Shown piece after piece: positions 47,327 to 64,000 of a DNA stretch of 64,000 nt; position 1 is the first letter of the stretch; each line of letters starts with the position of its first letter. Below the pieces are notes generated by a model. It was not told the origin of the DNA and ran no database searches. It saw only the letters and a list, made by a program, of their open reading frames with translations. This DNA comes from an uncultured Mycoplasmatota bacterium. GTDB lineage: Bacteria > Bacillota_I > Bacilli_A > RF39 > UBA660. The stretch covers positions 4,332 through 68,331 of the forward strand of contig CAMMJA010000002.1 of NCBI GenBank assembly GCA_946497145.1, in the 5' to 3' direction. Both the position numbers and the translations under genes were made by a program.

Positions 47327-47649
47327 TATCTTTTCACCACGATTTCTTCCAATTCTTCTTGCTTAGTGATCATTTCAGAGTATGGTTTTAGTTTACCCTC
47401 TAATGATTTATAAAGAGTATCTGCTCCAATAAAAGAAAACACTCCTACCCATAACGAATTAAACAAATTCACGTCTGTAAAAGCCAAACAAAAAAGGACT
47501 CCTAGTCCCATATTTACAATAAAACTGTATAACCCAATCCACTTGCTTGACTTGAACATCCCTTTTGTTTTTTGGACAAATGCACAAGTAACTACCCCTA
47601 GTGCTACTGCGACAATCAAAAGTTGTTGCAACAATTCTATATTTAACAT
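47326..47649 (-). CDS. holin
   Basis: 107 aa with three TMs and a charged C-terminus. AAGGAGG-N7-ATG. Its stop overlaps the endolysin start. Confidence 0.75.
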   Translation of the reverse strand: MLNIELLQQLLIVAVALGVVTCAFVQKTKGMFKSSKWIGLYSFIVNMGLGVLFCLAFTDVNLFNSLWVGVFSFIGADTLYKSLEGKLKPYSEMITKQEELEEIVVKR

Positions 47650-47661
47650 ATTTATTCCTCC

Positions 47662-48066: not shown

Positions 48067-48076
48067 ATTTCGACTC

Positions 48077-49225: not shown

Positions 49226-49646
49226 AAATAAATTCCTCCCATTCTTCGTCACTTGTTTCATTCCAATTGATATTACTTTGAATATTCCACAAGTCGCCTT
49301 CATAATTCAAATTATTTTCTAATAAGGTTAAATTGTTAATCCATCGGTTTATATCTGAATAATCAAATGATTTTAACGGGTGATCAAATTCGTTTTTCAA
49401 CCAAATTTTATCAGGAATATATCCATTTGGTCGAAAAAAATAAAAGCTCATCGCGGAAATAGCTTTTTCAATATGATCAACCAACTGGATATAGACGAAA
49501 TCATTTAATGACCATGTATGTTTTTCATACACTGGTAATTCAGCAGTAATATCTCTAATTTGTTGGTTTAAAGTATCTATCTTGTTTTCGATAGTATTCA
49601 AATCTTGATAGCTCAAATAATTTGTTTCGTTATACTCTCTAATCAT
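49224..49646 (-). CDS. phage hypothetical protein
   Basis: 140 aa with AAAGGAG-N9-ATG. Lies between the tail-tip and fibre genes. Confidence 0.68.
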   Translation of the reverse strand: MIREYNETNYLSYQDLNTIENKIDTLNQQIRDITAELPVYEKHTWSLNDFVYIQLVDHIEKAISAMSFYFFRPNGYIPDKIWLKNEFDHPLKSFDYSDINRWINNLTLLENNLNYEGDLWNIQSNINWNETSDEEWEEFI

Positions 49647-52125
49647 TCAGAGTTACTCCTTTCAAACTTCCAGATAATCCTCCATCGAACTTCAACGTTT
49701 GTTCAGTAATTATAATATTACTAAAACCATATCTGGTCTCTAATTGTATTATATCTGTAATTTGTAGCGAAGGATCTCCGTTATACTCAATGTCGGCCAC
49801 ATAAAGACCATAGTAATCAAAAATAAATTTTGCAACTCTATTCATATCTGTTAAAGTTCTAATATACGGATTGCTAATAGAGATACTATCACCTTCAGCG
49901 ACTAAAGGATTACTTATAACCGTTTTTGTAGTCGTTTCTTCATATGTATAACCTTTTACAACCAATTCTATACTATCTTTCGTTGAAGAAAAGTATGTAA
50001 ATTTCAATCTATAGTAATTTTTTTCAATCAACGACAAATTACTTTCTGATATAACTGCTCCATCAATAGAAATTTGTAAGCTATTAAAATCGGTAGGTCT
50101 AGAATACGAGATATCAACATTATATTCATATCTGTATTCTTCTCCACTAGAAGTATATACAGTTACTTTTTTCCCTGATATAGTATCTTTAAAAACTTCT
50201 TCTTGTTCTGTTTTTTTGTTAGACATTGTTGTATTTTCAAAGACTACTTCCTTAACTAGATTTCTATTTGTCATCTTAGGATAATTCTTTTGACAGTTTA
50301 AATATAGTGTATCATATACTTCGGTTACAATATAATTTACAGAAACTGGCCCTTGAACCAAATTAGGAGTATACTTTCTTTCTGGATAAACCATAGAATT
50401 ACAAAAAATTGCCAATGACTGAATTTGCTCTGTATTGTTTTTAAAATTAGAATAACTATTATTAACCGTTCCATCGTATAATAAATTACATTTTGATTGT
50501 GCAAAAGACAATGACATTCTAGTCAAATCTTGCAACAAATCTTTAGCGTCATAGTTTCCGTTGTTAACTACTGTATATTGGCTACTATTTAATGGGCCAT
50601 CGGCTTTTAATCCAACAGTAGAATCGTTGCTGGTATAACTCGAGTAATTAAAAACTCCAAGCGGAACAAATTCATCGGCACAGTTTTTGAGCGAAATATA
50701 AGGTAAAAATTTTGTATTTTTATCTAACAATTTCAACAATGAATTTGGATTTATTTCATCAAACATACCATCGTAGTTGTTAAGATTCATTGAAAATGTG
50801 TTGTTTGGCATTTCTAAAGAAATGTTATCAACTTGTTCTGTTACAGAAAAATCTATAAGTCTTCGTCCTTCGTACAAGTAGGTAAAACCATTATCTATTT
50901 TATATATTTTTATTCTGTGGTCGTTACTCCATGACAATACATCGATTGTCATTTCTGCAATGTAATCATAGCCGTCACGAATATCTTCAAATTGAATATT
51001 ACAGATAGTTTCCGTATTGTTTCTTACTTTGATAGTTTCATCGTAATAATCTTCCAAACCATATTTTACATGTTTTATTACTACGTCAAAATTTTGGGCA
51101 TATCCATCTTGAAAATAAATAGTACACCCAAAAACACCATTATTACTAAAAATACCAATATCGTCACTTGCTGTTAATTTTTGTTTTATAACAACACTAT
51201 CCGTATCAAATGCTCCTATGTATCCTGCGTTTGGATTGACGAACGGAACGAATTTATAATTCAAATTCCCAACGACTGTTGCGTTTCTTCCATTAACAAT
51301 ATCTTCTATTTCGTTGCTTTCGGTTTGGAACAAATAATGTGAAACCAAGTTTTCTGTCATAACAATACCCGCACGTAGATATTCTTGATATATCATATTT
51401 GCAACTCCATAATATCGAGAATCGACAACATCATATACTGCCAACTCACTTATATTGAAATTGTTTGATACATCATTACCAAAAGTGATATTATTGATAT
51501 TCCCTGTATAATTACCGTTAACACAAACTGGTTGATTGACTCCTCCAACATTAACAGTAAAAATACTGTTTTCTGTTGTAGGATAGACACTAGCATACGC
51601 TCTATATCTAGTATTTAATTTTAAAATTTGAGGTTCGCCGTTTTGCATTTCATCTTCGCCATTAACAGTTGATTTGCTATATAAAGATCCATCCGTATTC
51701 ATTCCTACTTCAAATGAATAATTATCTCCACTAGCCGTAAAAAGAACGGACTGCTTGTAATCTGTAAACTCGATATCAAAAAGTAAGATCAACCCATCTT
51801 TTATATCAAGACTATATGAAATTTCCAAATGATTATTTCCAAAAACAAGAGCATAATTGTTATTTCTTGTTGGATCGTTTGGCAAAATAAAAGAACCATC
51901 TAATAAAAAACGTTGCGGTTCCAAAGTGGCATAATTTATAAAACACGGATCAGAAGAAAACACACTATCAGAATTAGTGATACTTGTTTCCTTTTCTCCA
52001 GTAATACCGACCAAGTTATTTCTGACATTGATTTCACTACCTCTATATAATGCTTTTACGCAACCTTTGATTTCACGATTTCTTGCTTTTATTGACTCTT
52101 TAAACTCTTTGCTTATATCGATCAT
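49639..52125 (-). CDS. tail-tip/baseplate structural protein (Tal position)
   Basis: About 828 aa, downstream of the tape measure and small tail protein. GAGGTG-N4-ATG (MIDISKEF). Confidence 0.78.
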   Translation of the reverse strand: MIDISKEFKESIKARNREIKGCVKALYRGSEINVRNNLVGITGEKETSITNSDSVFSSDPCFINYATLEPQRFLLDGSFILPNDPTRNNNYALVFGNNHLEISYSLDIKDGLILLFDIEFTDYKQSVLFTASGDNYSFEVGMNTDGSLYSKSTVNGEDEMQNGEPQILKLNTRYRAYASVYPTTENSIFTVNVGGVNQPVCVNGNYTGNINNITFGNDVSNNFNISELAVYDVVDSRYYGVANMIYQEYLRAGIVMTENLVSHYLFQTESNEIEDIVNGRNATVVGNLNYKFVPFVNPNAGYIGAFDTDSVVIKQKLTASDDIGIFSNNGVFGCTIYFQDGYAQNFDVVIKHVKYGLEDYYDETIKVRNNTETICNIQFEDIRDGYDYIAEMTIDVLSWSNDHRIKIYKIDNGFTYLYEGRRLIDFSVTEQVDNISLEMPNNTFSMNLNNYDGMFDEINPNSLLKLLDKNTKFLPYISLKNCADEFVPLGVFNYSSYTSNDSTVGLKADGPLNSSQYTVVNNGNYDAKDLLQDLTRMSLSFAQSKCNLLYDGTVNNSYSNFKNNTEQIQSLAIFCNSMVYPERKYTPNLVQGPVSVNYIVTEVYDTLYLNCQKNYPKMTNRNLVKEVVFENTTMSNKKTEQEEVFKDTISGKKVTVYTSSGEEYRYEYNVDISYSRPTDFNSLQISIDGAVISESNLSLIEKNYYRLKFTYFSSTKDSIELVVKGYTYEETTTKTVISNPLVAEGDSISISNPYIRTLTDMNRVAKFIFDYYGLYVADIEYNGDPSLQITDIIQLETRYGFSNIIITEQTLKFDGGLSGSLKGVTLND

Positions 52126-52126
52126 A

Positions 52127-52504
52127 TTACACCTCAATAAAATTCATGGTAACATCTGTTCTTAACACAATCTTATAAGTAACAGGATCCATCTTCTTAG
52201 ATTTACCATCTAAAGGACCACCATAAACTTCTTTTATTACTCGATTACCATAATTGTCTGTAAACTTTAATTGAAACGAATTTTGATCATACAACATTTG
52301 TAACAATGCCATTTCTTCATCGTTTAGCGCATTCCAACCGCATACAACCTTTGCACGGTTTCTTCTTACTATGTCTCGGTGTAGGTATCCTAATGAATCA
52401 ATAAAACTATTCTCTAAATGCGTGTAAGTTGGAGAATAATTTTCAGGAGAAGGAGTTGGTAAATTAAACCATCCTCCTCCAATATTTGCTTCTAATAATG
52501 CCCT
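52127..52504 (-). CDS. small tail protein (distal-tail-protein position); no canonical start
   Basis: Frame is open from 52516. Protein-like sequence runs 64 codons upstream of the first ATG (52312). AAGGAGG-N7-AGG at 52504. Confidence 0.65.
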   Translation of the reverse strand, partial: RALLEANIGGGWFNLPTPSPENYSPTYTHLENSFIDSLGYLHRDIVRRNRAKVVCGWNALNDEEMALLQMLYDQNSFQLKFTDNYGNRVIKEVYGGPLDGKSKKMDPVTYKIVLRTDVTMNFIEV

Positions 52505-52505
52505 A

Positions 52506-54467
52506 TTATACCCTCCTTATAACTGTTGATTTTCCAAGTCGATGACCTTCTTCTTCAAAATCTGGATACGTTGCTCTAGCAAATTCACGACCATTTATTT
52601 CTAAAATAATATCACCAGTATCACGACTTTCCGTTTGAATATATGGCAAAATATCCATCATAGCGTCAGTAAAAGTTTGACGCATAATATTTTGAGGAGA
52701 AACAATTTCAGGGTTACTAGAGGCACCCGGGTACTCTCCAAATTGTCCGAATGTAGGTTTATAAGCAACCGTTCCCGAAGCAAAACGTGCTCCACCACCA
52801 CCGCCACCAAATGAGCCACCAACAAATGTTTGTAATTTTCTCGTAAAAAGTCCAAGCCAATTATCAATCCTTTTTGTGCTTATTTCTGATGGAGTTATAT
52901 CCATCTCAGCTTCGATCTGTGTTCTAAATTTTTTCCCGCTTACACTTTCAATTCTGCTTACCATATCATCAATTTTATCCTTTTGTTCCTGAGTATAACG
53001 AGTTCCATCTTTCAAGTCATCTAAATAGTGATTGTATTCTTCTGCAGCTCTATCAGAAAGCCAATTTATTCTTTCTTGATTATCACCGGCTTCTTCCATT
53101 TGCGATAATATACTATCAAATGTTTTTTCTCTTATCGACATTCTTTCCTCATCCTGTTTGTTAATTTGATCCAATAATTCCTTATATTCTTTTATTTGTG
53201 ATACTAATTTGGCAATGCCGAGTGCCTCAATAAGTAACAAAGCAGTTACTATTCCATACAATCCATAACTTCCGCCTGATACACCTAAAAGACTTGCAAT
53301 TGATCCTATTGCACTTCCTACTTTCCAACCAACAAACACGGTAGCTCCTAAACCAGCAATAGTTAATAATACCTCTTTATTTTCTACACACCAATTCCAT
53401 AAATCTTTCAATTTAAGGGCTACATCTTCTATCCATTGTTTCACATTTGGATCTAATTCAATGTTTGCAAGATCAGAAAACGGATTATCTACTTTTTCAT
53501 CAGCGAAACCTCCTAAATTGTCCATTGATAAGTTAGTGATTTCATCTAATGACGTAAGTTGTTTATTTAATTCTTTTGTCGCTTGAGTCGTTCCTTTAAT
53601 ACTTTTAGTTGCCTTATTACTAGCTCTAGCAATATAGTCAATACCAGTAAATGCTTTGACAAAAACATTTACATAACCGATCAACTTCGAAATTAGGTTA
53701 GTAATAAATGTCAATACTGGCTCTAACATAGCACCGAAGCTTACCCAGTTGTTCGTTATTTTATTACTTAACTCTGTGTCATAACTTAAATAAGAACTTG
53801 CAGCTCTAGAAACAACTCTCCAAATGGACTGTATTCCAAACAAAGATAGTGCAAACCTTTTTACACTCGCTATGGATCTATCAAAACCATTTCTAATTCC
53901 TTCAGTCATATTTTGGAAAACGTTTTTTGTATCATTGGCAGACTTTTTAATATCTTTAATAGAAGACGATGCCTTTTTTATATATGTTTTATCTCCTACT
54001 TGGAATGGTTTCCCTTCGGGAATTTTTCCTATACTAGACCATGTATTGATGTATTCTTTGGTTTCATTTGCCACTTTTTTAGTTTCTTCTTTTGTTTTTG
54101 CTGTACTAGAATAAATTTTATTATATGCCTCTTGAACCTTTTGTAATGCAGTAGATAATTGGTCCATACGCTGACTTTCTTTTAAATACGTATCATCTGC
54201 GCCAGCATTATTGTAAATTTTAACTCCAGTATCGGTAGTCCATTGTCCACCTGTCGGCATTTTATACAAAACGTCTCTCTGTTCATCAATTTTTTTCTTT
54301 AAAAAAGAAAAGCTTTTTTGAAATCCAGAAGTATCTATTTTAGGTTTTATGACTGTAGAATCCTCTACCTCTTCTTTAACTCCCTTTACAATATTTTTTA
54401 CCTTATTAGCAGAGCTCTTCAATTTGGAGGTCAAATATTCTAATTCTATGCCATATTTCTCATTCCT
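52506..54467 (-). CDS. tape measure protein
   Basis: About 650 aa of coiled-coil, TM-like and G-rich segments, following the G/G-T chaperone genes. Start is either the TTG at 54434 (no SD) or GAGGG-N7-AGG at 54467. Confidence 0.85.
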   Translation of the reverse strand, partial: RNEKYGIELEYLTSKLKSSANKVKNIVKGVKEEVEDSTVIKPKIDTSGFQKSFSFLKKKIDEQRDVLYKMPTGGQWTTDTGVKIYNNAGADDTYLKESQRMDQLSTALQKVQEAYNKIYSSTAKTKEETKKVANETKEYINTWSSIGKIPEGKPFQVGDKTYIKKASSSIKDIKKSANDTKNVFQNMTEGIRNGFDRSIASVKRFALSLFGIQSIWRVVSRAASSYLSYDTELSNKITNNWVSFGAMLEPVLTFITNLISKLIGYVNVFVKAFTGIDYIARASNKATKSIKGTTQATKELNKQLTSLDEITNLSMDNLGGFADEKVDNPFSDLANIELDPNVKQWIEDVALKLKDLWNWCVENKEVLLTIAGLGATVFVGWKVGSAIGSIASLLGVSGGSYGLYGIVTALLLIEALGIAKLVSQIKEYKELLDQINKQDEERMSIREKTFDSILSQMEEAGDNQERINWLSDRAAEEYNHYLDDLKDGTRYTQEQKDKIDDMVSRIESVSGKKFRTQIEAEMDITPSEISTKRIDNWLGLFTRKLQTFVGGSFGGGGGGARFASGTVAYKPTFGQFGEYPGASSNPEIVSPQNIMRQTFTDAMMDILPYIQTESRDTGDIILEINGREFARATYPDFEEEGHRLGKSTVIRRV

Positions 54468-54834
54468 ATATTATCCCTCTCTTCTTTGCCTTTTCTATTA
54501 AAAAATCAGGCATTTTATATCTTTTTTTAGGCGGATACAGCTCAGGGCTTGCCTCTTCTGGAGTTTTAGGAAACTTATCACTAAATACTCTCCCTATTAA
54601 CACTGCATGCTTCCACAATTCGTAAGCCAATCCTTTGTTATAATTTTCTATGGTATTGATTAGTTCAAAAAGTGTCATATCATACATGTTTTCATACAAC
54701 AAACCTCTTTGCAACCCCAACTTATATAGTTGCTCTATAAAACTTCTAACGCCTCGTTCACTTTCGATAATATCTTCTCTTGAGCATGTTGTTTCATCTC
54801 TTTGGTCTGTTCTACATGCTCTTTTTTCAAAAAA
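54466..54834 (-). CDS. tail assembly chaperone T extension (-1 frameshift product G-T)
   Basis: The -1 frame is open from the slippery site through ORF 54466..54720. Confidence 0.7.
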   Translation of the reverse strand, partial: FFEKRACRTDQRDETTCSREDIIESERGVRSFIEQLYKLGLQRGLLYENMYDMTLFELINTIENYNKGLAYELWKHAVLIGRVFSDKFPKTPEEASPELYPPKKRYKMPDFLIEKAKKRGII

Positions 54835-55115
54835 CCCGAAATTACAAGCACCTCATAAATAATGTTGTTAATGATTTCATCTAGAGAATATTTTTCCAAT
54901 AAGTTATCCATTAAAGTAGTTGCTTCGTCTTTAGAAAATGTTTTGTTCGTTCCGCGAACACAATACATTAACAAAGTAGTAACAGATTTAATAGAATAAT
55001 CCTCAATAAAATCTAGTAACTTTGTATGATTTTTTTCCTCTAATTCAATAGCGTTACTTGTCGTTAATCTTAATTGATAACTTTTTTCAGCTATATCTAA
55101 TTCATAATATTTCAT
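54735..55115 (-). CDS. tail assembly chaperone G
   Basis: 126 aa between the major tail and tape measure genes. GAAGGAG-N7-ATG. Confidence 0.8.
   Translation of the reverse strand: MKYYELDIAEKSYQLRLTTSNAIELEEKNHTKLLDFIEDYSIKSVTTLLMYCVRGTNKTFSKDEATTLMDNLLEKYSLDEIINNIIYEVLVISGFLKKEHVEQTKEMKQHAQEKILSKVNEALEVL
54828..54834 (-). promoter_or_regulatory. -1 programmed frameshift slippery heptamer U_UUU_UUG
   Basis: Minus sense GGT_TTT_TTG_AAA_AAA in the 0-frame of gene G. The position near the 3' end of G is canonical for tail chaperone frameshifting. Confidence 0.65.
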
Positions 55116-55134
55116 ATTTCTTCTCCTTCATAAT

Positions 55135-55163
55135 AAAAAAGGGGCATAGTTGCCTATGACCCT
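55135..55163 (-). terminator. terminator after the major tail gene
   Basis: Minus sense GGG-U-CAUAG-GCAA-CUAUG-CCC(C) followed by U6. Overlaps the stop codon. Confidence 0.65.
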
Positions 55164-55615
55164 ATTGGTATTGTTTTTTCTGGTTCTCCAATTGGATTTA
55201 ACGTCATGCTAAATCCTAGCAAATCGCCAGTACTTCCACCTTTGATCATAGTAGTAACTTTACTTTTAAATGAAATTGTAATTCCGTTTGAGTAAGTTAA
55301 CTTCCAAAATACTGGTGTATCGTCATCTTCTAAATCACTGGCTAATTTAATGTTAGATTCAGCAGTCGGATCTTCCATGTTAAATTCAAAAGTATATTTT
55401 TGTACATCTTGTAAACCTGGAATGGAAGTTTTATATTTTTTGTTATCCATGGTTGTGGTTTCTATGTCCTCTGGTTCACTTCCGATGTCCGGAACCTGTG
55501 TGATTCCCTTTATTTGAGTATATTGTCCATCTGACGTTGAGCTATATTCTAGTTTAGTACCAGAAAATGAATGATAATTTAATTGTTCTTCCCTATTTGA
55601 TTCCTCCTTAAACAA
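55154..55615 (-). CDS. major tail protein (TP901-1/phi13-like)
   Basis: IKGITQVPDIGSEPEDIETTTMDNKKYKTSIPGL resembles this family. The TTG at 55615 lies upstream of the SD. The alternative start is AAGGAGG-N8-AGG at 55594. Confidence 0.85.
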   Translation of the reverse strand: MFKEESNREEQLNYHSFSGTKLEYSSTSDGQYTQIKGITQVPDIGSEPEDIETTTMDNKKYKTSIPGLQDVQKYTFEFNMEDPTAESNIKLASDLEDDDTPVFWKLTYSNGITISFKSKVTTMIKGGSTGDLLGFSMTLNPIGEPEKTIPIGS

Positions 55616-55979
55616 TAAAAGTATTATTTATTTGATTGTAAATTCCATAACCTGTAACACGAATCTTTCTAACACCATTATCTACAGAAACATCGTTATA
55701 ACTGGTTTTGAAATTTATTTCCTTTAATTTTTTTTGAATATCGTATCTTGCTTTATCAATAATAGATAAAGTATTCTCCTCTGATAATTCTTTTCTTTTT
55801 ACATATCCAATAATGCTAACTCGCATTGTGTAATTTTTATCAAGATCACTGTCTTGGTAATCTTCTTGTGTCGTAAAACTAAAGTAAGTTGTTTCTTCCT
55901 CAAGGATATCATCTGGCATTTCAGGGGTAACTTCGATATTCTCGATTTCTTCTAATTTTCCTTGAATAAATTCTCTCAT
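55608..55979 (-). CDS. tail completion/terminator-like protein
   Basis: Called from position and size (123 aa). AAGGAGG-N7-ATG. Confidence 0.65.
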   Translation of the reverse strand: MREFIQGKLEEIENIEVTPEMPDDILEEETTYFSFTTQEDYQDSDLDKNYTMRVSIIGYVKRKELSEENTLSIIDKARYDIQKKLKEINFKTSYNDVSVDNGVRKIRVTGYGIYNQINNTFIV

Positions 55980-56482
55980 TTTATTACCTCCTTTAACGCC
56001 TTACCTGTATTTTTTTTATAGTTGTTGATATTTTTATTTAGTGCTGGACGAAAATGTGGTTTAGCTGGTTGAGCGTAAGCGACATAGAACTCATTACCGT
56101 TTATTACTATTTTTCTCCCTATTGCACGATTTACAGATTTAACAGGCACAAACCAATACTGATACCCACTTTCGATAAACGTTTTAGTATGTCCAATATG
56201 TGGCTCTAAAGCATAAATACCTGTACCATTTTCTATCATGCGTCCAACAGCATATCCATCGCTAGTCAAATCAGTATATACCGAAGTTTTTATGCTATCA
56301 CTGTTCACTTCTGTGTCGCTTATTTTTATACTAGAGATATACTCACCACTTTTAGCAGGTGCATATTGTATAACATCCTCCCATATTTGTTTAGCTGTCT
56401 CTCGTTGAGATTCAACTAGTTGCTTTGGTAAGGTGTCAATTATTTTCGACACATCTATAACCATCTTTTCAAATGATTTCAT
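55976..56482 (-). CDS. HK97 gp10-family head-tail joining protein
   Basis: APAKSGEYISSIK...ENGTGIYA...KPHFRPAL is typical of HK97 gp10. Confidence 0.78.
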   Translation of the reverse strand: MKSFEKMVIDVSKIIDTLPKQLVESQRETAKQIWEDVIQYAPAKSGEYISSIKISDTEVNSDSIKTSVYTDLTSDGYAVGRMIENGTGIYALEPHIGHTKTFIESGYQYWFVPVKSVNRAIGRKIVINGNEFYVAYAQPAKPHFRPALNKNINNYKKNTGKALKEVIK

Positions 56483-56811
56483 ATTCGCTCGATATCCACT
56501 CTGCTATCTGTAACGGAAATGATTTTATAAATCACTCCATTAACAAATATAAAATACTTGCTAACATTATCTTTTTTGTTATTAACTTTGGTTAATAAAA
56601 ATTTTTCTAAATCTTTTAGTGGACTCGAAATGCGTTTTACATTAACCAAATTTGATCCATAAATACTCGCTGACACCTCATCGTTTAAATATTGCGACTG
56701 TACCTTATATTTTTGAATAAGAGTATATTCAGCAACAACTCTCGCGCCATTAGGATCTTTGGAATAATTGGCCTTTTTTAATTCTACGGTTTCTAAATAT
56801 CTAAGTAACCT
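56479..56811 (-). CDS. head closure/head-tail adaptor protein (SPP1 gp16-like); no canonical start
   Basis: Protein-like frame is open from 56817 and the only canonical start is a GTG at 56676. AGG at 56811 overlaps the upstream TAG. Confidence 0.6.
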   Translation of the reverse strand, partial: RLLRYLETVELKKANYSKDPNGARVVAEYTLIQKYKVQSQYLNDEVSASIYGSNLVNVKRISSPLKDLEKFLLTKVNNKKDNVSKYFIFVNGVIYKIISVTDSRVDIERI

Positions 56812-57124
56812 AAAAGATCACTCGCTTCCCATTTTTGATAATATTATTTCGCATTTTTTCTATGTTATCTTCAAAAGAAATACTATGACCACTTTCAGAA
56901 ATGGAACTGGAACCTTCAGCACCTCTTCGTAAATACTCAGCAATAACACATTGACTGATCTCTGGTTCTAAAGCAGATAAACTCTTTCTATTAGAAATAG
57001 ATAAAGCCACGCTAGATACGTTATCAATAATTTCTCGCAAAGTATCAACATCGTCTCGATAATTGTCGGCTAAATTACGAGTTACATTGTCTAAAATCTT
57101 TCTTTTGATTTCATCTTCTGTCAT
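56810..57124 (-). CDS. head-tail connector (gp6/gp15-like)
   Basis: 104 aa in the position after the capsid gene. DNVSSVALSIS...AEYLRRGAEG is connector-like. Confidence 0.72.
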   Translation of the reverse strand: MTEDEIKRKILDNVTRNLADNYRDDVDTLREIIDNVSSVALSISNRKSLSALEPEISQCVIAEYLRRGAEGSSSISESGHSISFEDNIEKMRNNIIKNGKRVIF

Positions 57125-57144
57125 ACAACACCTACTTTCTTACT

Positions 57145-57174
57145 AACAAAAGAAAGGATTACTATTAGTAATCC
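57145..57174 (-). terminator. terminator after the capsid unit
   Basis: Minus sense GGAUUACU-AAU-AGUAAUCC followed by UUUCUUUUGUU. Confidence 0.6.
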
Positions 57175-57315
57175 CTATTTCTTGTTAGTTTTTTTAGTCG
57201 AAACAACTTTCTCTACTATTTCTTGATAAGCATTGCTTTTGATCATTTGCTTTAAAGTGAATTGATTGGTTACAAATAAGATCGCACCAGTCTCAATACA
57301 TTTAAATTTTTTCAT
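57175..57315 (-). CDS. small phage ORF (46 aa), below the track cutoff
   Basis: AAGGAAG-N8-ATG then MKKFKCIETGAILFVTNQFTLKQMIKSNAYQEIVEKVVSTKKTNKK, translated by hand. Confidence 0.4.
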   Translation of the reverse strand: MKKFKCIETGAILFVTNQFTLKQMIKSNAYQEIVEKVVSTKKTNKK

Positions 57316-57339
57316 AGTTTGTTCTTCCTTTCGTCTTTA

Positions 57340-58329
57340 TTAAGCATCGGCTCTAGTATAGTATGTCTCAGTACTGTCAAACTCCGCGCTAGATGGAACT
57401 TGTGTATATACACCAAAATCATAAGTGTAATAAGTAGTTCCTGAAGCAAATTCTTCGATTTCCGCTTTGGTGTAAACATAATCACAGTCATACAAAATAA
57501 CTTCTGGAACTAATGCTTGACCGCCTGAGTATGCAAATAATTCAAGTGCAATAGCGTCGTCAAATGGAATTTTTTCAGCATCATATTCGCTTAAATAATT
57601 TGGCAATGCAATTGCTTCTTCTTTTAACATAACCATGGCTGGTACATCGCTAGGCATACGGTTTGATTCATATGTGATCACTGACTGATACATACCAATT
57701 GCTCCATTTGATGGTACAGTTCCGTTAGGTAGACTATCTAAATAATCTTTCAATTCAGTTTTGTAAGTAGTGTTAACTACTAATGCTAACAAATCTTCAT
57801 CTACGCCATCAATGAAATCGTTATTGGTCACTTTGGCTGTACTGATCAATCTGTCAACAATCTTTTTAACTGTATCTCCAGATCCTCTAGCAACTTGAAT
57901 ACCTGCATCACGTGCAATTCGAAAGAATTTTCTATCATAATAAGTTTTGATGACATCTTTGGCGTTTTTACTTCTCTTTTGTGCCATACCATCAATACCA
58001 TATAGTTTTAGATCCTTTTCTTGTAATTCTTCGATGATTTCTTTGTCATCATCAATATTTACAGTTACAGGTTTAGCTTTTACTTGGTTTCCTTTGCCTT
58101 GTGCTCTAGCCGTTCCCTTGTCTTGTAACTTAGCATTAGCAAATCTTTTATATTCTACACTACCAGTAGTAGGATCCCCGCTACCATTCTTCGCTTTCAA
58201 TGCCTCGCTAACACATCCTGATTGAATATTTTCAATCACTCCGTCTAATGTTTCTGCTAAATTATCCATAACATCTGGTGTTAGATAATCAGCAATGTTT
58301 AATGAACTTTGTCTTGCCCTATCAATCAT
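57340..58329 (-). CDS. major capsid protein
   Basis: 329 aa following the scaffold gene. The ATG at 58329 abuts the SD with zero spacing. In-frame AGG at 58320 sits 9 nt after the SD. Confidence 0.86.
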   Translation of the reverse strand: MIDRARQSSLNIADYLTPDVMDNLAETLDGVIENIQSGCVSEALKAKNGSGDPTTGSVEYKRFANAKLQDKGTARAQGKGNQVKAKPVTVNIDDDKEIIEELQEKDLKLYGIDGMAQKRSKNAKDVIKTYYDRKFFRIARDAGIQVARGSGDTVKKIVDRLISTAKVTNNDFIDGVDEDLLALVVNTTYKTELKDYLDSLPNGTVPSNGAIGMYQSVITYESNRMPSDVPAMVMLKEEAIALPNYLSEYDAEKIPFDDAIALELFAYSGGQALVPEVILYDCDYVYTKAEIEEFASGTTYYTYDFGVYTQVPSSAEFDSTETYYTRADA

Positions 58330-58348
58330 CTCCTTTTATTTTTGGCAA

Positions 58349-58864
58349 TTAAATACTTGTTCTTGATACTCGGTTTTTTGCACGAGTATTGTTCATTACA
58401 TTTTTAGGACTTGGTTCTTTTAATCGCTCGTTAACTCTTTTTTCTACTGCCTTATCAAAACTTGTTTTAATTGTTTTTAAAGAATTATTTAAGTCTTCGG
58501 CTGTAATAGATCTAAAGTTAATCAAGTCAACTAAAGAAACGTCCAATTCTGTTTCTTGTGCAATCTTAACTGCTTGCTCTTTCAATTCATAAGCATTCAA
58601 CTTAGCGATTGCTTCTTCTTTTTCTTTTCGATCTTTTTCGGCTTGATATTTTAGCTTTTCTTCCGCCTTCATATTAGCCATCTTTTCTGCTTCTGTTCTT
58701 TGCTCTTCTTGTTCTTTTAACAATTCTTCTCGAATCTTTTGCTTTTCAGAAGCCACTATCTTGTTCAATTCGTCACGAGTAAAAGTTTTTTCTTCTTTCT
58801 TCGTTTCTGTTTGAACATTTTCTGCTGTTGCGGTAGCAGTTACCATACTTTCGTTATTTTCCAT
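58349..58864 (-). CDS. scaffolding protein
   Basis: 171 aa, highly charged coiled coil (DUF4355-like). AAGGAGG-N6-ATG. Confidence 0.85.
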   Translation of the reverse strand: MENNESMVTATATAENVQTETKKEEKTFTRDELNKIVASEKQKIREELLKEQEEQRTEAEKMANMKAEEKLKYQAEKDRKEKEEAIAKLNAYELKEQAVKIAQETELDVSLVDLINFRSITAEDLNNSLKTIKTSFDKAVEKRVNERLKEPSPKNVMNNTRAKNRVSRTSI

Positions 58865-58928
58865 AACTTTCCTCCTTAACTTTTACGGTGTTATAACCAA
58901 ACATTCAATCCGTTACGGTGGATTAGAC

Positions 58929-59158
58929 CAAAATAAAAGAACGATTTCTCGCTCTGGTGCTATTTATAAGCACTGTACCAATAGCATACCGTTGACTGGT
59001 CGAATGGGGAGTTCCACTCGATTCCCATAGGATTCTATACTTAAAGCTCCACCTAACTTGCCTTTATATGTACACTTGGCGTTCTATCGTCATAGAACAG
59101 TTTAAGGTACCTATCCGGGCGTATATGCTATCAGTACACTACCTATAAAAGTAGTGTA
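58929..59158 (-). ncRNA. candidate structured RNA (~230 nt), class unknown
   Basis: ORF-free gap in a densely packed operon. My hand count gives about 40% GC. 5' hairpin at 59158-59135. A 15-bp helix pairs 59137-59123 with 58989-58975. Internal hairpins. The 3' GAAA-tetraloop stem (58955-58938) is followed by UUUAUUUU. Confidence 0.5.
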
Positions 59159-59170
59159 AACAAAAAGATA

Positions 59171-59332
59171 CTACTTATTTTTAGTATCTTTCTTTGCTTT
59201 TTCATCTATAAACTTTCTAAACTCCTCGATATTTTTTTTATCTTTTTCAGTGAAAGGAACTTTAATTTTCAGCGGTTTAACATCCTGATATTCTGTCCAT
59301 CGCGGATCTTGAAATAGTTCTTTTTCTTTCAT
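59171..59332 (-). CDS. small phage ORF (53 aa), below the track cutoff
   Basis: ATGA overlap with the minor head protein stop. MKEKELFQDPRWTEYQDVKPLKIKVPFTEKDKKNIEEFRKFIDEKAKKDTKNK, translated by hand. Confidence 0.5.
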   Translation of the reverse strand: MKEKELFQDPRWTEYQDVKPLKIKVPFTEKDKKNIEEFRKFIDEKAKKDTKNK

Positions 59333-60804
59333 TCTAACTCCTCTATCAGAAAATAATGTTTATCGCCTTTGGTATAATAATCTCTTGTAATAAACTTCAT
59401 ACCATATTGATATAGAACTTCTGCCTCATTTGACATTTGATTATATTCTAACATGTTTCTAGCTTTTTTGCTACCTTTTACATAAAAGAAAACATTTGCT
59501 TTGGAATTATATCCTGGTTTTAAAGAATACGCTTCAAAAGATTTTGCCTCATATACTTCTCCGACTGGATGTTGTGAAATAACAGTCTGTAATGCATGAT
59601 TATCTACCTGCAAAACTCTTGTGATAAATTCATCATTTTTGGAATTGTAGAAAGGTTGCTTATTTAGCGCTGTATATAAGTTTTTAACTAATCTTCTTTC
59701 TTTTCGATTTAATCTTTCTCCTCTATACATTTTTCTATTGATATCATAGAAATCGGCACTCTCCCATTTATTAATAGCGCTTTTTTCATTCCAATTCATA
59801 AGACTTTTATTTAACTTATCCCTAGTCATATCTAATTGATATGTTACTGTGCTTCTACACCAGTGAAAGTGATTGTTGATTGGTGGTAAATTCGCGCCTG
59901 CAACAAGACCAAATATTTTATAATTTACAATTCGTCCATCATCGTAACTATATCGTTGAAAAGTGTTCCAATCGTTCACAGAAAAAACTTGCTCGTCAAG
60001 CGATCTGCACATTTCCGTAGTTCTCTGATCTATTTCTGCTATAAATCTTACCTTGGCATTTTTGTCAACTTTTTTATAACCTTCCACCAAAGCATTGTTT
60101 ACTAATGATGTTACTTGTAGTTCTAAATCCCCACTAATTTTATCACCGTTAATATTCAAGTAACGTTTCCTTTGAGCATTTAAAATTGAGTCGTATATTG
60201 TTTTGTCGACAACCGGTTTACGGTCTTGTTGAATATCTATAACTGCTTGGCGATAAATTTGATCAGCATTGCTTAACATTGTAGCTTCAACATAATCATT
60301 CCAAATGTATCCCTTAGGATTAGGAAGTGCAAGCAACGATAACAACAAATAGTTAGGTAATCTACTAGGTTTCGATCTGTCGTTAGTTGCTCGATACACT
60401 TCTTCCTGCCCTTGTGCATATTTTGTATTTGCTACCTCATTAAACAATTTGTTTTCGTACTTATCTAGTTTAGAATGGTTTTTCACATAGGTTTTGTAAA
60501 TCAATAAGTGTAATATTTCAAAATTTTTTACTCTACTCCTATTATGAATAGAATTTGCTAAATACTTGAAATATCCACTTAACAATCCGTCATCAGACCA
60601 TTCTTCAATCAATAAATCGATTTTTTTCTTTTGTTCTGATGCGGCATATTGAAAAATATTATCTTTGTTTATATCCAGCGAATCAAAAATTGCTTGAATA
60701 TCATTTTTTAACCGTTGATTTAGTTTTATATATTTCGTTTTAAACTGTTTTAGTAACTTGTCAGTGTCATTCCATCTCGTTTGTAGTATCTGCTCTCTCG
60801 TCAT
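59329..60804 (-). CDS. minor head protein (SPP1 gp7/Mu F-like) fused to a C-terminal ADP-ribosyltransferase domain
   Basis: Central NxHxxCRS-type motif (PINNHFHWCRST). The C-terminus carries YDINRKMYRG, ITRV, SFEAYS and NEAEV, matching an R / S-x-S / E-x-E layout. Confidence 0.85.
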   Translation of the reverse strand: MTREQILQTRWNDTDKLLKQFKTKYIKLNQRLKNDIQAIFDSLDINKDNIFQYAASEQKKKIDLLIEEWSDDGLLSGYFKYLANSIHNRSRVKNFEILHLLIYKTYVKNHSKLDKYENKLFNEVANTKYAQGQEEVYRATNDRSKPSRLPNYLLLSLLALPNPKGYIWNDYVEATMLSNADQIYRQAVIDIQQDRKPVVDKTIYDSILNAQRKRYLNINGDKISGDLELQVTSLVNNALVEGYKKVDKNAKVRFIAEIDQRTTEMCRSLDEQVFSVNDWNTFQRYSYDDGRIVNYKIFGLVAGANLPPINNHFHWCRSTVTYQLDMTRDKLNKSLMNWNEKSAINKWESADFYDINRKMYRGERLNRKERRLVKNLYTALNKQPFYNSKNDEFITRVLQVDNHALQTVISQHPVGEVYEAKSFEAYSLKPGYNSKANVFFYVKGSKKARNMLEYNQMSNEAEVLYQYGMKFITRDYYTKGDKHYFLIEELE

Positions 60805-62284
60805 CTACTTCTTCCTCTTTTTCAGCATTTGTATTATCTCCAAACTTTTGAGTTCTTTCCAAGTTTTTATTAAAATTCTCGTCTGTTTCCTCGTCTCTTA
60901 ACGCTATTTCACTTTCGCTGTCCAGCTCGTACGGCAAATGATCAATCACTGTTTTATCGCTTAATAGGCCACGTAGTTTTAACCAGCCATCAATAATTTC
61001 TTGATTATTCTGTGGCAAATTACGAGTTAGGATAATTTCAATATCTCTAAAATCATACTTAGTATTCTTTTTAGTATTTATTCTATCTACAATATTTTCC
61101 CACATTCTTAACAATTCTTTTTTGAACAATTTATCTGCTTGAATCAATACTTGCTCTAAAGGGAAAAATTTCTTTTCTAAGGCGCTTGAATTATCGGCAT
61201 TAGTAAAACCTTGATCTGTTACGTTTGGTACCCCAGAAATCATAAGAGCCATATCTAAACACGTCTTTTTGTGATTTTCGCTGGCTGTATCATTGACATT
61301 CTTGATTATCCAGTCTATATCGCCATCACTTTTATCAGGTGTATAAAACACCTTTGCATTTAATATTAAATTATCTTCTTCTATTCTAGCGGGATTTTGA
61401 ATCATTTTTACATTTCCAAATTCGTCAACAACAATATTTCCGTTTTCGTCTCTTTCTTCTATCATCACTTCATTTTGAGGTTTATAACCGATTACTTTTA
61501 ATTTTGCATCGTCGTTGTATTGAAAAGTATTAGCGTTATTTCGAATAACTTGTTCGTACTTATCTATCAAAGTAATAACATTTTCAAATATTCCTATGTT
61601 ATCAGGGTTTTCAACTACTAAAGCAGGAATAAGCAACCATTTAACATCTTGCCTTTCGTCCTCTAATTCCTTAAAATTTTCCGATTGTAGTTTTTCATTA
61701 ACATAGTATCTTTTAAAATCTTCAGTAATCAATTCAACTTTATTCACAGCATTTCCGTTTGCATCAGTTTCTTCCCAACTTCTTAATACTCCAATCAATT
61801 GTCTTGGAGTTGAATAATCCCAAATACCAATCGTGTTCAATGCACTAGTATGTGCATATACGATCTCGTTGTCACTATTTTCATAAAGCAAACCATATCC
61901 TGCTCGCATTATTAAGTAATCCTTGGCTACATCATAAAAAAAACTAGAATTATCATTGTAGTCTTTAATATAATCTAAAATCACTTGAAATGAATCGGCG
62001 TCGTTATTTTCTCCAAATATTTTATCAAAAAATTTTTGTATAATATTTCTTTTTATCTCGTTTTCTTCTTTCTTTACTTTATAAACAGGATCTTTACCTG
62101 CAAAATAACCGCAGGCAATATTGGAAATGTAATATTCAAGAGCGATTTTAACGTCACTTAAATCTTTTTTTCTAGTATATCTGTTATATAATTCTTTTCG
62201 CTCATTCCATTCTTTTTCTGCTTCATTCAATAATTGAGAAATATTTTCTTCTTTTTCTATATATTCTTTTGTATATTGTAACCT
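60767..62284 (-). CDS. portal protein (SPP1 gp6-like); no canonical start near the SD
   Basis: Portal-like sequence. Frame is open from 62302. AAGGAGG (62299-62293)-N8-AGG at 62284. The first canonical start is a TTG at 62230 without an SD. Confidence 0.86.
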   Translation of the reverse strand, partial: RLQYTKEYIEKEENISQLLNEAEKEWNERKELYNRYTRKKDLSDVKIALEYYISNIACGYFAGKDPVYKVKKEENEIKRNIIQKFFDKIFGENNDADSFQVILDYIKDYNDNSSFFYDVAKDYLIMRAGYGLLYENSDNEIVYAHTSALNTIGIWDYSTPRQLIGVLRSWEETDANGNAVNKVELITEDFKRYYVNEKLQSENFKELEDERQDVKWLLIPALVVENPDNIGIFENVITLIDKYEQVIRNNANTFQYNDDAKLKVIGYKPQNEVMIEERDENGNIVVDEFGNVKMIQNPARIEEDNLILNAKVFYTPDKSDGDIDWIIKNVNDTASENHKKTCLDMALMISGVPNVTDQGFTNADNSSALEKKFFPLEQVLIQADKLFKKELLRMWENIVDRINTKKNTKYDFRDIEIILTRNLPQNNQEIIDGWLKLRGLLSDKTVIDHLPYELDSESEIALRDEETDENFNKNLERTQKFGDNTNAEKEEEVDDERADTTNEME

Positions 62285-62297
62285 ACTATTCTCCTCC

Positions 62298-63707
62298 TTA
62301 AATTATTTTGGTGTATCCAAAACTCATGGTATTAGGATTGCTATTTTCGTAAACGCCTGTTGTACAATCGGGTGCATCATCATGTTCATTTTTTCCTTCA
62401 CGTTGATATTTTTTCATCGACTTTGCATATTCAGGCCATCTCGTTTCCCAATCAATGGGGAAAAAAACATTGTTCATAACTCCTGTACTGTTGGACAAGA
62501 TTCTAGCTTGTTTATTTTCCGATTGATGAAACCAATCTATTTTTGTATGATGATTCTTCCTTTCTTTCAACTCTCTGGTAACATTCCTAGCAAATCCACG
62601 ACCGCCGTTATTAGATTCAATTTTTGCGTAACCAACACGATCTTTAGTTAACATATCAGCAACCGCTGGTTCTGTAATTTCCATTGGGTCCTTTGTAAAA
62701 ATAATATCTATAACGTATTTTTGATTATTAAAGGAAACTCCATAATTCATTGAACATAAATAATCATCTCCTTCATCAGCCGTATCTGTATAGTTCATTA
62801 TATATTTAAAAGGTGGAACTTTCTCATACTGATATGTCATAAATTTACTGTACAAACGTCCTTTTACGTCAATTGGCTCTTGTTGATAATTGGCTTCAAC
62901 AATATCCTTATTCATATTTTTTATTTTGATGTCATAATCTTTGCGTGATAAAATTTCTTCACATAACATAGTTCCGTCTTCTTGTAACGCTTTATGTTTA
63001 ATTATCCTGACTAAATCACCAAATTCTTCTATAATTTTTCCTGCCAAATCGTTTGTAGCCCATCGAGTCATAAAAACAATAACTTTCCAATTTCCTTCCA
63101 GACGAGAAAGCATAGTGTTATTAAACCAATCCCAAATTTTCTCTAATGTTCGCTCGTTGTATACTTCTTCAGCACTTTTAATAACATCATCAATTATCAA
63201 TATATTAGCACCAAATCCAGTAGCCGTTCCTCCCGGAGATGTAGCCAAATAATTTTTTTGTTTACTTCCTCTTAATGCCCATAAGTTAGCGCTTGCCTCT
63301 CCATACTTGATCATAGTTTCAGGAAATATATCGTTATACACCAATCTAGTTTTATCAATCTTTATTTCGGATATCGTATCTCTAACTTGCCTTGCAAACA
63401 TAGTAGACAAGATTTCATTATATGATCCCGTCATAATCTTTAATTCTTTATTTTTTCCAAATAACCATTCACAAGTATTTTTACTAGTAAAACTCTTCCC
63501 GTGACGTGGTGGCTCATTTAAAATTAAAAATTTATGATTCATATCATTTTCAATAAAATCTTGTATTTCTTCACATATATTTTTTAGATATATCCTGTCA
63601 TCTTTATAAAAAGTAGGATATCTTAATCGGCAATAGTCATATAAATTTCTTCGTGCTAATTCTTTTTTTGCTTCAATCTGTATATATTTAGGTATTTTAC
63701 TTTCCAT
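62298..63707 (-). CDS. terminase large subunit
   Basis: Walker-A-like PPRHGKS, IIDD Walker B and a C-terminal nuclease region, in the position between terS and portal. Confidence 0.92.
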   Translation of the reverse strand: MESKIPKYIQIEAKKELARRNLYDYCRLRYPTFYKDDRIYLKNICEEIQDFIENDMNHKFLILNEPPRHGKSFTSKNTCEWLFGKNKELKIMTGSYNEILSTMFARQVRDTISEIKIDKTRLVYNDIFPETMIKYGEASANLWALRGSKQKNYLATSPGGTATGFGANILIIDDVIKSAEEVYNERTLEKIWDWFNNTMLSRLEGNWKVIVFMTRWATNDLAGKIIEEFGDLVRIIKHKALQEDGTMLCEEILSRKDYDIKIKNMNKDIVEANYQQEPIDVKGRLYSKFMTYQYEKVPPFKYIMNYTDTADEGDDYLCSMNYGVSFNNQKYVIDIIFTKDPMEITEPAVADMLTKDRVGYAKIESNNGGRGFARNVTRELKERKNHHTKIDWFHQSENKQARILSNSTGVMNNVFFPIDWETRWPEYAKSMKKYQREGKNEHDDAPDCTTGVYENSNPNTMSFGYTKII

Positions 63708-64000
63708 TAGCCAATCTTCTCAATTCTTCCTCATTCAAATTAGCATATGGATTAGATATGTTCCCGCTATGACTAAATTCTTGTTTGTCTTCCCAACCGA
63801 AGTTATTTTTCAAATTAAAAATAACACCTGTTGCATTAGGAAAAAATAATCTTTCTTCTGCGAATTTTTCGACTCTATTGCGGGCTTTTTTTATCGTGAG
63901 GAAAAATTTATCATCTTTGGAATAATTTAATAACGATTTTCTGTCCATATCCAAAGCCAACGCTAAACCACTCATTGTATATGGCATATGTTTTTCGTCG
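63697..64000 (-). CDS. terminase small subunit (may extend beyond the window)
   Basis: The HTH-like GLALALDMDRKSLLNY...IKKARNRVEKFAEERL is typical of terS. The frame is open to the window end. Confidence 0.75.
   Translation of the reverse strand, partial: DEKHMPYTMSGLALALDMDRKSLLNYSKDDKFFLTIKKARNRVEKFAEERLFFPNATGVIFNLKNNFGWEDKQEFSHSGNISNPYANLNEEELRRLANGK

Follow-up and report, generated by a model that had tools for sequence, protein, structure and literature searches.

A candidate family of modular RNA elements with two alternative folds in late operons of phages from uncultured gut Bacillota

What is the role of a gap that codes for no protein in the middle of a phage head operon? This question is raised by a DNA stretch of 64,000 nt from an uncultured Mycoplasmatota bacterium (contig CAMMJA010000002.1), the whole of which is called "the window" below. 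The gap (58865-59170, 306 nt) belongs to a minus-strand operon and precedes the gene for a head scaffolding protein. A preliminary description, made from the sequence, had proposed a single structured non-coding RNA of 230 nt. The observation of a structured RNA on the gene strand is confirmed, and the interpretation given to it is partly supported. Instead of one 230-nt RNA, there is a carrier of about 70 nt (hairpin P1, a clamp helix P2 and hairpin P3) which holds a lineage-specific insert of 133 nt. We are confident that the gap represents one member of an uncatalogued family of modular RNA elements, which siphovirus-type phages and prophages from uncultured gut Bacillota have within their late transcripts. 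A conserved carrier of about 70 nt and, at the tip of its central stem, a hypervariable cargo very probably make up each unit.

The gap lacks open reading frames (ORFs), as had been noted: none of at least 30 amino acids occurs in 58880-59170. At 58900-59099, GC content reaches 0.41; the upstream gene has 0.29-0.31 and the scaffold gene about 0.345. This enrichment, also reported previously, is real and modest. The minus strand folds with -88.1 kcal/mol (z = -3.5; none of 100 shuffles was as good), and the plus strand with z = -2.5. When folded alone, the 133-nt cargo is not significantly stable (z = -1.6). The minimal member of the family (L039; relatives are cited by such handles) reaches z = -6.4, and its minimum-free-energy structure is fold II, one of two folds described below. 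The folding signal originates in the conserved carrier and not in the cargo.

Rfam 15, scanned at the gathering threshold over the whole window, returned only two tRNAs, both outside the gap. At E <= 10, region 58700-59400 gave only three matches, at chance level (13.6-17.7 bits). The phi29 pRNA model (RF00044) had no match in the window, and ARAGORN found no tRNA or tmRNA gene in 58700-59400. Rfam scans of the relatives' elements gave no match on the carrier; the only matches were weak hammerhead ones in one cargo (L130). The intergenic region, the 4-kb head module and the family consensus were compared to INPHARED by blastn, resulting in a single chance-level match of 32 nt. No second copy was detected in the window with two nhmmer half-models, which were used instead of covariance model R1, as R1 is unable to span the 133-nt cargo and splits the window copy. 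Judged by these scans, the element belongs to no catalogued RNA family, in line with the preliminary description. A full-text literature search with motif sequences and concepts found no prior description, but unnamed candidates in large phage-RNA surveys (e.g. PMC10690425), which were not checked, may include the family.

Relatives fetched via the scaffold and capsid proteins match only both ends of the gap. They have a short-form architecture (5' hairpin, stem, second hairpin, terminator), and the 133 nt of the window are missing. A pattern scan for the 5' hairpin and the clamp returned 59 stretches from IMG/VR and 62 from GTDB, which were parsed to 55 distinct members. A further 10 were found with a 3'-arm pattern, so that about 65 distinct members are at hand. 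Chance accounts for about four of the 39 distinct IMG/VR segments and, judged by the presence of the 3' arm, apparently for roughly half of the GTDB matches. Named hosts are uncultured gut Bacilli, 'Tenericutes' UMGS bins, Mycoplasma sp. CAG:956, Ca. Fimihabitans, Ca. Coprosoma, Scatovivens and some metagenome-assembled genomes of Clostridia. The conserved arms occur in every member. Between the clamp strands, members have anything from about 8 nt (L039, the L016 family, L200) up to about 300 nt, and L232 has more than 900 nt; the median unit length is 142 nt. The 'empty' units with a cargo of 8-11 nt (L039, the abundant L016 family, L200) are also conserved and show compensatory changes, which argues for a function of the carrier on its own.

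Covariation supports two conserved folds of the carrier that are mutually exclusive. In fold I, three hairpins abut without linkers: P1 (CACUAC/GUAGUG), the P2 clamp, which closes the cargo, and P3 (AGUGCU/AGCACU). In a cargo-trimmed alignment of 41 sequences, 95.1% of the cells are paired, and 14 of 25 pairs are changed on both sides (121 cells). None of 500 shuffles was as good, and slid controls were paired to 17-55%. The closing pair of P1 covaries (CG 33, UA 6, UG 2) and its remaining pairs are invariant; 7-bp variants of P1, e.g. CACUAUC/GAUAGUG, have matched insertions. P3 covaries at three pairs of alignment A2 (58-72: GC 29, AU 11; 59-71: CG 32, UA 4; 60-70: UA 19, UG 7, CG 6). In the window, P1 is at 59136-59157 (minus strand, ACACUAC-UUUUAUAG-GUAGUGU) and P3 at 58956-58974 (minus strand, AGUGCU-UAUAAAU-AGCACC). 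P1 is the 5' hairpin of the preliminary description.

In fold II, the loop and 3' strand of P1 pair with the 5' strand and loop of P3. This extends P2 to a duplex of about 27 positions, which contains one invariant G·G mismatch. In an ungapped alignment of 52 distinct sequences (A5), the 26 pairs are paired to 95.4%, 17 of them with compensatory changes (148 cells). None of 500 shuffles was as good, and slid partners were paired to 28-56%. Counted outward from the clamp base, the register is gapless over 13 positions in all 55 members, whatever their loop lengths. Pairing in this register is 91-100% per position, except for the invariant G·G, and drops to 30-50% when the whole register is shifted. 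Variation in loop length always lies beyond the end of the fold II helix. For the window, the covarying 5' arm (UUUAUAGGUAGUGUACUGAUAGCAUAU, 59123-59149, minus strand) unites the loop and 3' strand of P1 with the 5' clamp strand. In the 3' arm (GUAUGCUAUUGGUACAGUGCUUAUAAA, 58963-58989, minus strand), the 3' clamp strand is joined by the 5' strand and loop of P3. The 15-bp long-range helix reported previously (59137-59123 with 58989-58975) is present and covaries strongly in the relatives. The second fold, in which an extension of the long helix replaces the 5' hairpin, had been missed.

The loops of P1 and P3 are complementary, with 5.50 bp for a unit's own loops versus 4.72 ± 0.13 bp for permuted ones (none of 5000 permutations was as high). 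The canonical loop pair is UUUAUA with UAUAAA; variants are UUAAUA/UAUUAA, AUUUA/UAAAU, UUUAUG/CAUAAG and CUAAUU/AAUUAG. Intramolecular kissing of P1 and P3 within fold I was considered as an explanation and is superseded by the gapless long duplex. For the window, the computed energies are -67.1 kcal/mol for fold II and -64.0 kcal/mol for fold I. These are 3 kcal/mol apart, so that the two folds are predicted to be nearly isoenergetic. In the minimum-free-energy structure of the window, the long-helix extension replaces the P1 hairpin.

The preliminary description had derived an RNA on the gene strand from G-U pairs in the long helix. This argument holds for the family as a whole, with 77 wobble cells compared to 12 A·C cells. 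The sense strand is paired in 95.1% of the cells, versus 88.7% when read antisense, and 53 of 55 units are co-oriented with the flanking genes, with none in the opposite orientation. The excess of wobble over A·C cells, together with the co-orientation, indicates an RNA that is read on the gene strand.

Several other readings of carrier motifs were discarded. P1 and P3 are no anticodon-stem mimics, as their loops vary and have no consistent anticodon. The motif CUGAUGA was rejected as a C box, K-turn or hammerhead core of the carrier, because all of it is in Watson-Crick pairs of the clamp and the window has CUGAUAG in its place. A leader peptide from an AUG before P1 was dismissed since this AUG is missing in the window, L010 and L016. 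Strands of P3 and of T1, a terminator-like hairpin upstream of P1, look swapped in some relatives. However, such an alternative pairing shows no covariation, and the resemblance is missing in the window, L010, L190 and L207.

The cargo of the window (58990-59122, minus strand, 133 nt) is inserted at the tip of P2. It is missing from the closest capsid relatives (86% identity of the major capsid protein), and this central part is, judged by such comparison, a lineage-specific insert. It has homologues in L258 and L280, where the flanking genes differ from those of the window. The L258 homologue was found by a clamp-specific metagenome scan and has 81% identity over 247 nt, the first two-thirds being almost identical. 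The one from L280, found by the 3'-arm scan, has diverged. Exact-pattern scans with two cargo strings returned nothing, or one chance match in a coding sequence. RNAalifold predicts 51 pairs for the three cargo sequences, 13 of them compensatory. A long-range helix, AUAG[G/C/A] with [C/G/U]CUAU, has three different Watson-Crick pairs at one position. Further consensus helices are ACCU/AGGU and AACU/AGUU. The 15-nt loop closed by GCC/GGC (AAGUGUACAUAUAAA) has the same sequence in the window as in L280, and two deviating positions in L258. A covarying 3' hairpin reads UCGAGUGG-AACUCC-CCAUUCGA. Of the nested helices that had been drawn by eye, GUUCUAU-GACG-AUAGAAC is a consensus hairpin that is upheld by covariation, while AUGGG...CCCAU and CUUAAA/UUUAAG are not. 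This pattern of changes marks the cargo as a genuine conserved RNA domain.

Cargos of other members fall into several unrelated families, some of which recur in different phages (L043 resembles L178, and L129 resembles L194). T-arm-like hairpins were seen by eye in the cargos of L163b, L056 and L196; ARAGORN found no tRNA in L163, L056 and L196. L207, L234 and the second unit of L248 (L248b) have, inside the clamp, an ORF of 83 amino acids with a ribosome binding site (RBS) and without Pfam or PHROG match. The largest cargo (L232, unit at 2625-3573, more than 900 nt) has its own TATAAT-type promoter and an ORF, the C-terminal part of which is amidase-like by eye. The L130 cargo (9756-9837) has a hammerhead-like core, CACGU-CUGAUGA-GAUUU..AAAUC-GAAA-CAC..GUG-UA/ACGUG, with weak Rfam matches to Hammerhead_3 (E = 0.44) and RAGATH-1-hammerhead (E = 1.2). 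No hammerhead core (CUGAUGA...GAAA with three stems) is present in the window cargo. A recurrent motif, GGUUAGG with GGGCUAAC(U/C) or GUGGUUAG with CUAACC, was encountered in L229, L168 (second unit), L201, L038, L163, L273 and L281. Its recurrence suggests a second widespread cargo family.

The units occur in two genomic settings. At least 21 of 36 non-redundant downstream ORFs are head scaffolding proteins, which belong to three PHROG families. The remaining ones are terS, terL, HNH endonucleases and HTH/sigma-like proteins. P3 is 5-110 nt away from the start codon of the scaffold gene or terS. In the leader context, the order is a phrog_36 late-regulator gene, 7-bp direct repeats with a tandem extended -10, a leader hairpin, the unit, a terminator, (a tRNA) and terS. 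L182 and L187 have both settings in one phage; L182 codes for the regulator, unit 1, terS, terL, portal, minor head protein, tRNA-Pro, tRNA-Gly, unit 2 and scaffold, in this order. Tandem units with different cargos are common (L043, L057, L163, L178, L168, L130).

Putative late promoters of one design were seen at L182 725-765, at L187 7905-7850 (minus strand) and upstream of the units in L043, L096, L163 and L200. Their paired 7-bp direct repeats differ by phage (ATGTCCG, ATGGCAC, TTGTCCG, ATGACCA, AGTGAAC), and their tandem extended -10 boxes read TGTTATAAT-N-TGTATAAT, directly 3' of the phrog_36 regulator gene. A similar layout, with a pause-inducing second -10-like element, is known from lambdoid Q/PR' regions. 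For members in the scaffold context, no promoter was seen by scan. In the window, the scan also returned none between T1 and P1. A hand-picked candidate there, TTAGCA-N17-TTTATT, was rejected, as it would truncate P1.

tRNA genes (Pro, Gly, Phe, Met, Ile, Glu, Thr, Lys) immediately adjoin units, namely in L182 (6627-6783), L116 (5317-5473), L054 (2271-3111), L187 (7471-7544) and L211 (7217-7290). Some of them are located inside the minor-head/scaffold intergenic region. Two phages have a ROOL RNA (RF03087) in the same orientation as the adjoining units. In L200 (1996-2583, minus strand, 184.8 bits), a unit, a degenerate unit, ROOL and a GAAA-loop terminator follow each other within the late-operon leader. 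In L246 (5042-5650, 167.7 bits), two tRNAs precede ROOL, and the unit is located 12 nt beyond.

Many units are accompanied by terminator-like hairpins: of 56 units, 39 have one in the 130 nt downstream, and 21 have one in the 70 nt upstream. In the window, the RNA is bracketed by two of them, and its position at the entry to the scaffold-capsid genes is borne out. T1 (59158-59189, minus strand) was read from the sequence as AGAUACUA-AAAAUAAG-UAGUAUCU with UUUUGUUU behind it. T1 shares nucleotides with the stop codon of the upstream 53-amino-acid ORF and stays below the threshold of the terminator scan (three G-C pairs). This is the upstream hairpin with a U-tract that had been recorded before. 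In many relatives, a conserved T1 reads AGCACUC-AAAAAUA-GAGUGCU-UUUAUUAUG. T2 (58930-58955, minus strand) is the GAAA-loop terminator of the preliminary description, AGAGCGA-GAAA-UCGUUCU followed by UUUAUUUU, and is called by the terminator scan at 58955-58938. Both are predicted stem-loops with a U-tract, as is typical of intrinsic terminators.

Among terminators that precede scaffold genes, the T2 apex AUAGAAAUAU with its GAAA tetraloop is conserved, and the stems covary. Such hairpins are present in the window (58955-58930), L158, L161, L174, L129, L136, L200 (about 1958-1935) and L001 (about 2375-2400). A tail that likewise trails T1, UUUUAUUAUG, often comes after them. The conservation of T2 exceeds what a generic terminator needs. 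A boxA-like sequence, UGUUCUUU, occurs in T2 and upstream of ROOL in L200, but is not conserved among T2 variants and was discarded.

All head genes of the window are on the minus strand, and, by the ORF layout, prophage structural genes seem to span roughly 45000-64000. The window ends at 64000, inside terS. This gene is followed, in the direction of transcription, by the large terminase (62298-63707, phrog_30251, 1.5e-166), an SPP1-type portal (60767-62230, PF05133, 4e-46), a minor-head or head-morphogenesis-like protein (59329-60804; phrog_595, phrog_241, phrog_115) and the 53-amino-acid ORF (59171-59332), which belongs to no family. Downstream of the gap are the scaffolding protein (58349-58864; Pfam DUF4355, 3e-16; phrog_172, 3e-29), the major capsid protein (57340-58329), assigned by its position and by relatives as it lacks a Pfam or PHROG match, and the head-tail adaptor (56810-57124; Pfam, PHROG). 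A bidirectional terminator-like hairpin, AGGGAUUACUAAUAGUAAUCCUU, at the capsid/adaptor junction (57154-57176) corresponds to the post-capsid terminator noted before. Given this hairpin before the adaptor gene, the downstream structural genes would need transcriptional read-through. In the apparently host-chromosomal part of the window, there are two minus-strand tRNA genes (30189-30262, 73.2 bits; 36045-36117, 71.8 bits).

Between T2 and the scaffold gene is the 5' untranslated region (UTR) of the latter (58865-58929, minus strand), with the RBS AAGGAGG at 58877-58871 and a hairpin, AAUCCACCGUAACGGAUU, at 58924-58907. This UTR is part of the phage backbone and is outside of the RNA family, since L001-L003, relatives without the element, have a homologous UTR. 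The hairpin is conserved as AAUCCACCG(U/C)AACGGAUU in the window (58907-58924) and L001 (2445-2465). It is shared with phages in which a Zn-ribbon ORF replaces the RNA unit, which indicates that the intergenic slot accepts different inserts. A pseudoknot between GGUGGA and UCCACC had been proposed and has to be abandoned. Its 3' partner is part of this UTR hairpin and is also present in relatives without the element, and the pairing is absent in the closest relative with the same cargo, where the 5' partner reads GGUGAG.

What, then, might the unit do? Our preferred reading, which we hold tentatively, is that of a cis-acting cassette for processing and stabilisation ('punctuation') of the late transcript; a processing element was among the roles proposed initially. 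The long duplex would form in the primary transcript, exceeding the approximately two helical turns needed by RNase III. Host RNase III would cut near the middle of the duplex, which is the P1/P2/P3 boundary, and would free the cargo as a stem-closed RNA. The flanks would then refold, with P1 as a 3'-terminal hairpin on the upstream (portal/minor-head) RNA and P3 as a 5'-terminal hairpin on the downstream (scaffold-capsid) RNA. These end hairpins could shield the products from 3' exonucleases and RNase J1, and would make each half of the late operon independent of the other in its stability. The stem tip might be a safe harbour for inserts, because an insert at the tip leaves the function of the carrier undisturbed. 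The conserved arms may serve as homology arms by which small RNAs or genes are exchanged between phages, and a self-cleaving cargo could stand in for the nuclease.

We infer RNase III as the nuclease, the position of the cut and the protective role of P1 and P3 from rRNA processing stalks, the RNase III sites of T7 and SP82, and 5'-hairpin stabilisers in Bacillota. Bacterial RNase III cuts duplexes of this kind, with about 27 positions, near the middle, as in rRNA stalks and in the T7 and SP82 sites. A substrate has at least 20 bp of near-continuous double-stranded RNA, and the 26 pairs of fold II, paired to 95.4% with one G·G, exceed this. After a mid-duplex cut, each flank would retain the sequence for P1 or P3, and this is the only explanation that we have for selection on both folds. 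Processing would also account for the persistence of empty carriers, for the placement of units at the 5' end of late transcripts and where low-copy genes (portal, minor-head) give way to high-copy ones (scaffold, capsid), and for units beside tRNAs and ROOL, RNAs which need processing.

Several points weigh against processing. All members are from uncultured phages, with nothing similar in INPHARED. While RNase III needs little primary sequence, many positions of the carrier never change, among them ACUA/UAGU in P1, UA/UA at the base of the clamp and the G·G mismatch. Such a pattern fits a specific protein or RNA polymerase as the recognising partner. The flanking T1 and T2 would suit a role at the level of transcription equally well as protection of ends. 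During transcription, the duplex arms are separated by cargos of about 300 to more than 900 nt, some of which have an ORF and one a promoter. The central, stem-on-stem part of fold II has limited direct covariation because most positions there never vary. Finally, covariation alone cannot separate an intramolecular fold II from intermolecular loop-loop pairing.

Of three rivals, the first, which also had been proposed initially and which we consider unlikely, is a cis-acting antitermination or attenuation switch that lets late transcription pass T2 and later terminators of the head operon. The carrier would be either a put-like nascent RNA that makes RNA polymerase resistant to terminators, or an attenuator of the 1:2 / 2:3 / 3:4 type, in which fold II sequesters the P3 5' strand. 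Two mutually exclusive folds are what a switch requires, and the strong conservation of primary sequence suits recognition by RNA polymerase or a host factor. The gene, promoter, unit and terminator order of the leader context resembles lambda Q-PR'-tR', with the second copy in mid-operon ahead of T2, the scaffold gene and the post-capsid terminator, and 39 of 56 units have the downstream hairpins mentioned above. An attenuator's alternative helix, however, should be a terminator with an immediate U-run. P3 is directly followed by one in some leader-context members (L043, L096, L163), but not in most scaffold-context members. In the window, AGAGCGA... without U's comes next, T2 being a separate hairpin for which no alternative pairing with the carrier was found. 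Polymerase would also have to pass T1 unmodified, as T1 is upstream of the element, and in L162, L173 and L242 there is no terminator before the next gene. A fold that binds polymerase co-transcriptionally also sits poorly with tandem arrays of differing cargo and with cargo lengths from about 300 nt to more than 900 nt. The carrier is unlike put, and has no Rfam match.

The second rival, to which we assign a similarly low probability, is a stand-alone small RNA that exists for its cargo, which might be a ribozyme, a decoy or some other domain acting in trans. The carrier would then serve only for stabilisation, as a scaffold, and the P1/P3 loops might pair between molecules, leading to dimers or rings as for phi29 pRNA and ROOL/GOLLD. 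Cargo families are themselves conserved (13 compensatory pairs in three sequences for the window cargo; L043/L178; L129/L194). Different cargos are found in tandem arrays, units are located among tRNA and ROOL genes, and there are terminators on both sides. The covarying complementarity of the loops (5.50 versus 4.72 ± 0.13 bp) would be accounted for, the more so as an intramolecular P1-P3 kiss seems sterically difficult with linkers of zero length. A cargo-centred purpose is, however, at odds with the conservation of near-cargoless units (L039, the L016 family, L200), with the lack of a detected promoter in scaffold-context members and with protein genes as cargo. In addition, the gapless register with the clamp in 55 of 55 members is expected of one intramolecular helix and unnecessary for kissing loops.

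That the 27-bp inverted repeat acts as DNA, as the ends of a miniature transposon or moron or as a single-stranded-DNA hairpin recombination site with an incidental RNA fold, is very improbable: inverted repeats around highly variable cargo, genes included, the same cargo between unrelated flanks and the status of the element as an insertion relative to the closest capsid relatives would fit, but double-stranded DNA repeats should show wobble and A·C cells equally (77 against 12 on the transcribed strand), P1 and P3 covary via sequence outside of the inverted repeat, units keep strictly to the direction of transcription, the cargos seen include no transposase or recombinase, and neither a target-site duplication nor a direct repeat abutting the arms was found in the sequences read. 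A small residual probability stays with a mechanism at the level of single-stranded DNA.

Returning to the processing cassette, the element would work most like RNase III processing stalks combined with end-hairpin stabilisers, and its tolerance of inserts recalls rRNA intervening sequences. With the stalks (16S/23S rRNA stems, T7 R1.1-type sites, Bacillus phage SP82), it shares complementary flanks and a long duplex enclosing the RNA to be released. It also shares the intercistronic position in a polycistronic transcript, and stalk cleavage products keep terminal hairpins that affect stability. In contrast, its flanks can refold to dedicated, covarying hairpins P1 and P3, which to our knowledge has no precedent for RNase III stalks. 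Its carrier sequence is highly conserved across unrelated phages, its cargo is interchangeable, and its cleavage is inferred. Intervening sequences of 23S rRNA are variable, sporadic inserts at the tip of a conserved helix, some with an ORF; they are tolerated since the helix base is kept, and are excised by RNase III. The element has such variable inserts at a helix tip, some with an ORF, but its host RNA is a small phage element, and its inserts include conserved structured RNAs and a gene with its own promoter. The 5'/3'-hairpin stabilisers of Bacillota (cggR-gapA, ermC and aprE leaders) also place an end hairpin of a processed mRNA just before a highly expressed gene. They are, however, single hairpins with no family-wide sequence, no second fold and no cargo.

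Other known RNAs are more distant in structure. HK022 put and EAR are stem-loop RNAs between promoter and terminators, with more than one copy per phage, and EAR is intercistronic. In leader-context relatives, the unit has the location of put, downstream of a promoter and upstream of terminators. It has no similarity to put in sequence or structure, with three helices rather than two, and T1 is upstream of it; its cargo and two-fold design have no counterpart in put or EAR. The carrier can also be viewed as a circular permutation of the three-helix junction of phi29 pRNA, with complementary, covarying loops on two arms, and portal and terminase genes are likewise its neighbours. Its arms share the covarying loop complementarity of pRNA, yet in gapless register with the clamp, as part of a continuous helix. 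There is no match to the Rfam pRNA model, the counterpart of helix A is hypervariable, and the phages are of siphovirus type with terS/terL and an SPP1-type portal, not phi29-like. With ROOL/GOLLD and phage tRNA islands, the units share the genomic niche (ROOL in L200 and L246; tRNAs in L182, L116, L054, L187 and L211) and the orientation. They are much smaller, lack homology, and the window copy has no adjoining ROOL or tRNA.

It is tempting to speculate, at low probability, that the carrier is an RNA-level cassette platform, a self-insulating two-state stem by which phages acquire, exchange and express small structured RNAs or genes. Its modules might then be the ribozyme-like domain, the T-arm-like hairpins, the 133-nt domain of the window and small genes. 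Such a platform could be a functional analogue of an integron or a moron slot that works through RNA structure. The units might even multimerise by P1/P3 loop pairing beside ROOL/GOLLD-type RNAs. If this reading is true, the cargos would represent a large unexplored pool of trans-acting phage RNAs, e.g. anti-defence decoys. Apart from this speculation, and provided that the family is what it seems, a dedicated RNA device would punctuate the late operons of many uncultured gut Bacillota phages, and could set the relative stability of packaging versus scaffold/capsid mRNAs.

The minimal unit of 70 nt has strong covariation for both folds and can be probed directly. The conserved arms are a handle for finding dozens of unrelated structured cargo RNAs, among them the 133-nt domain of the window and the hammerhead-like module, none of which is in Rfam. 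In addition, the units provide a link to ROOL and phage tRNA islands. The naturally insulated insertion site ahead of the scaffold gene could also be a guide for placing payloads in engineered phages.

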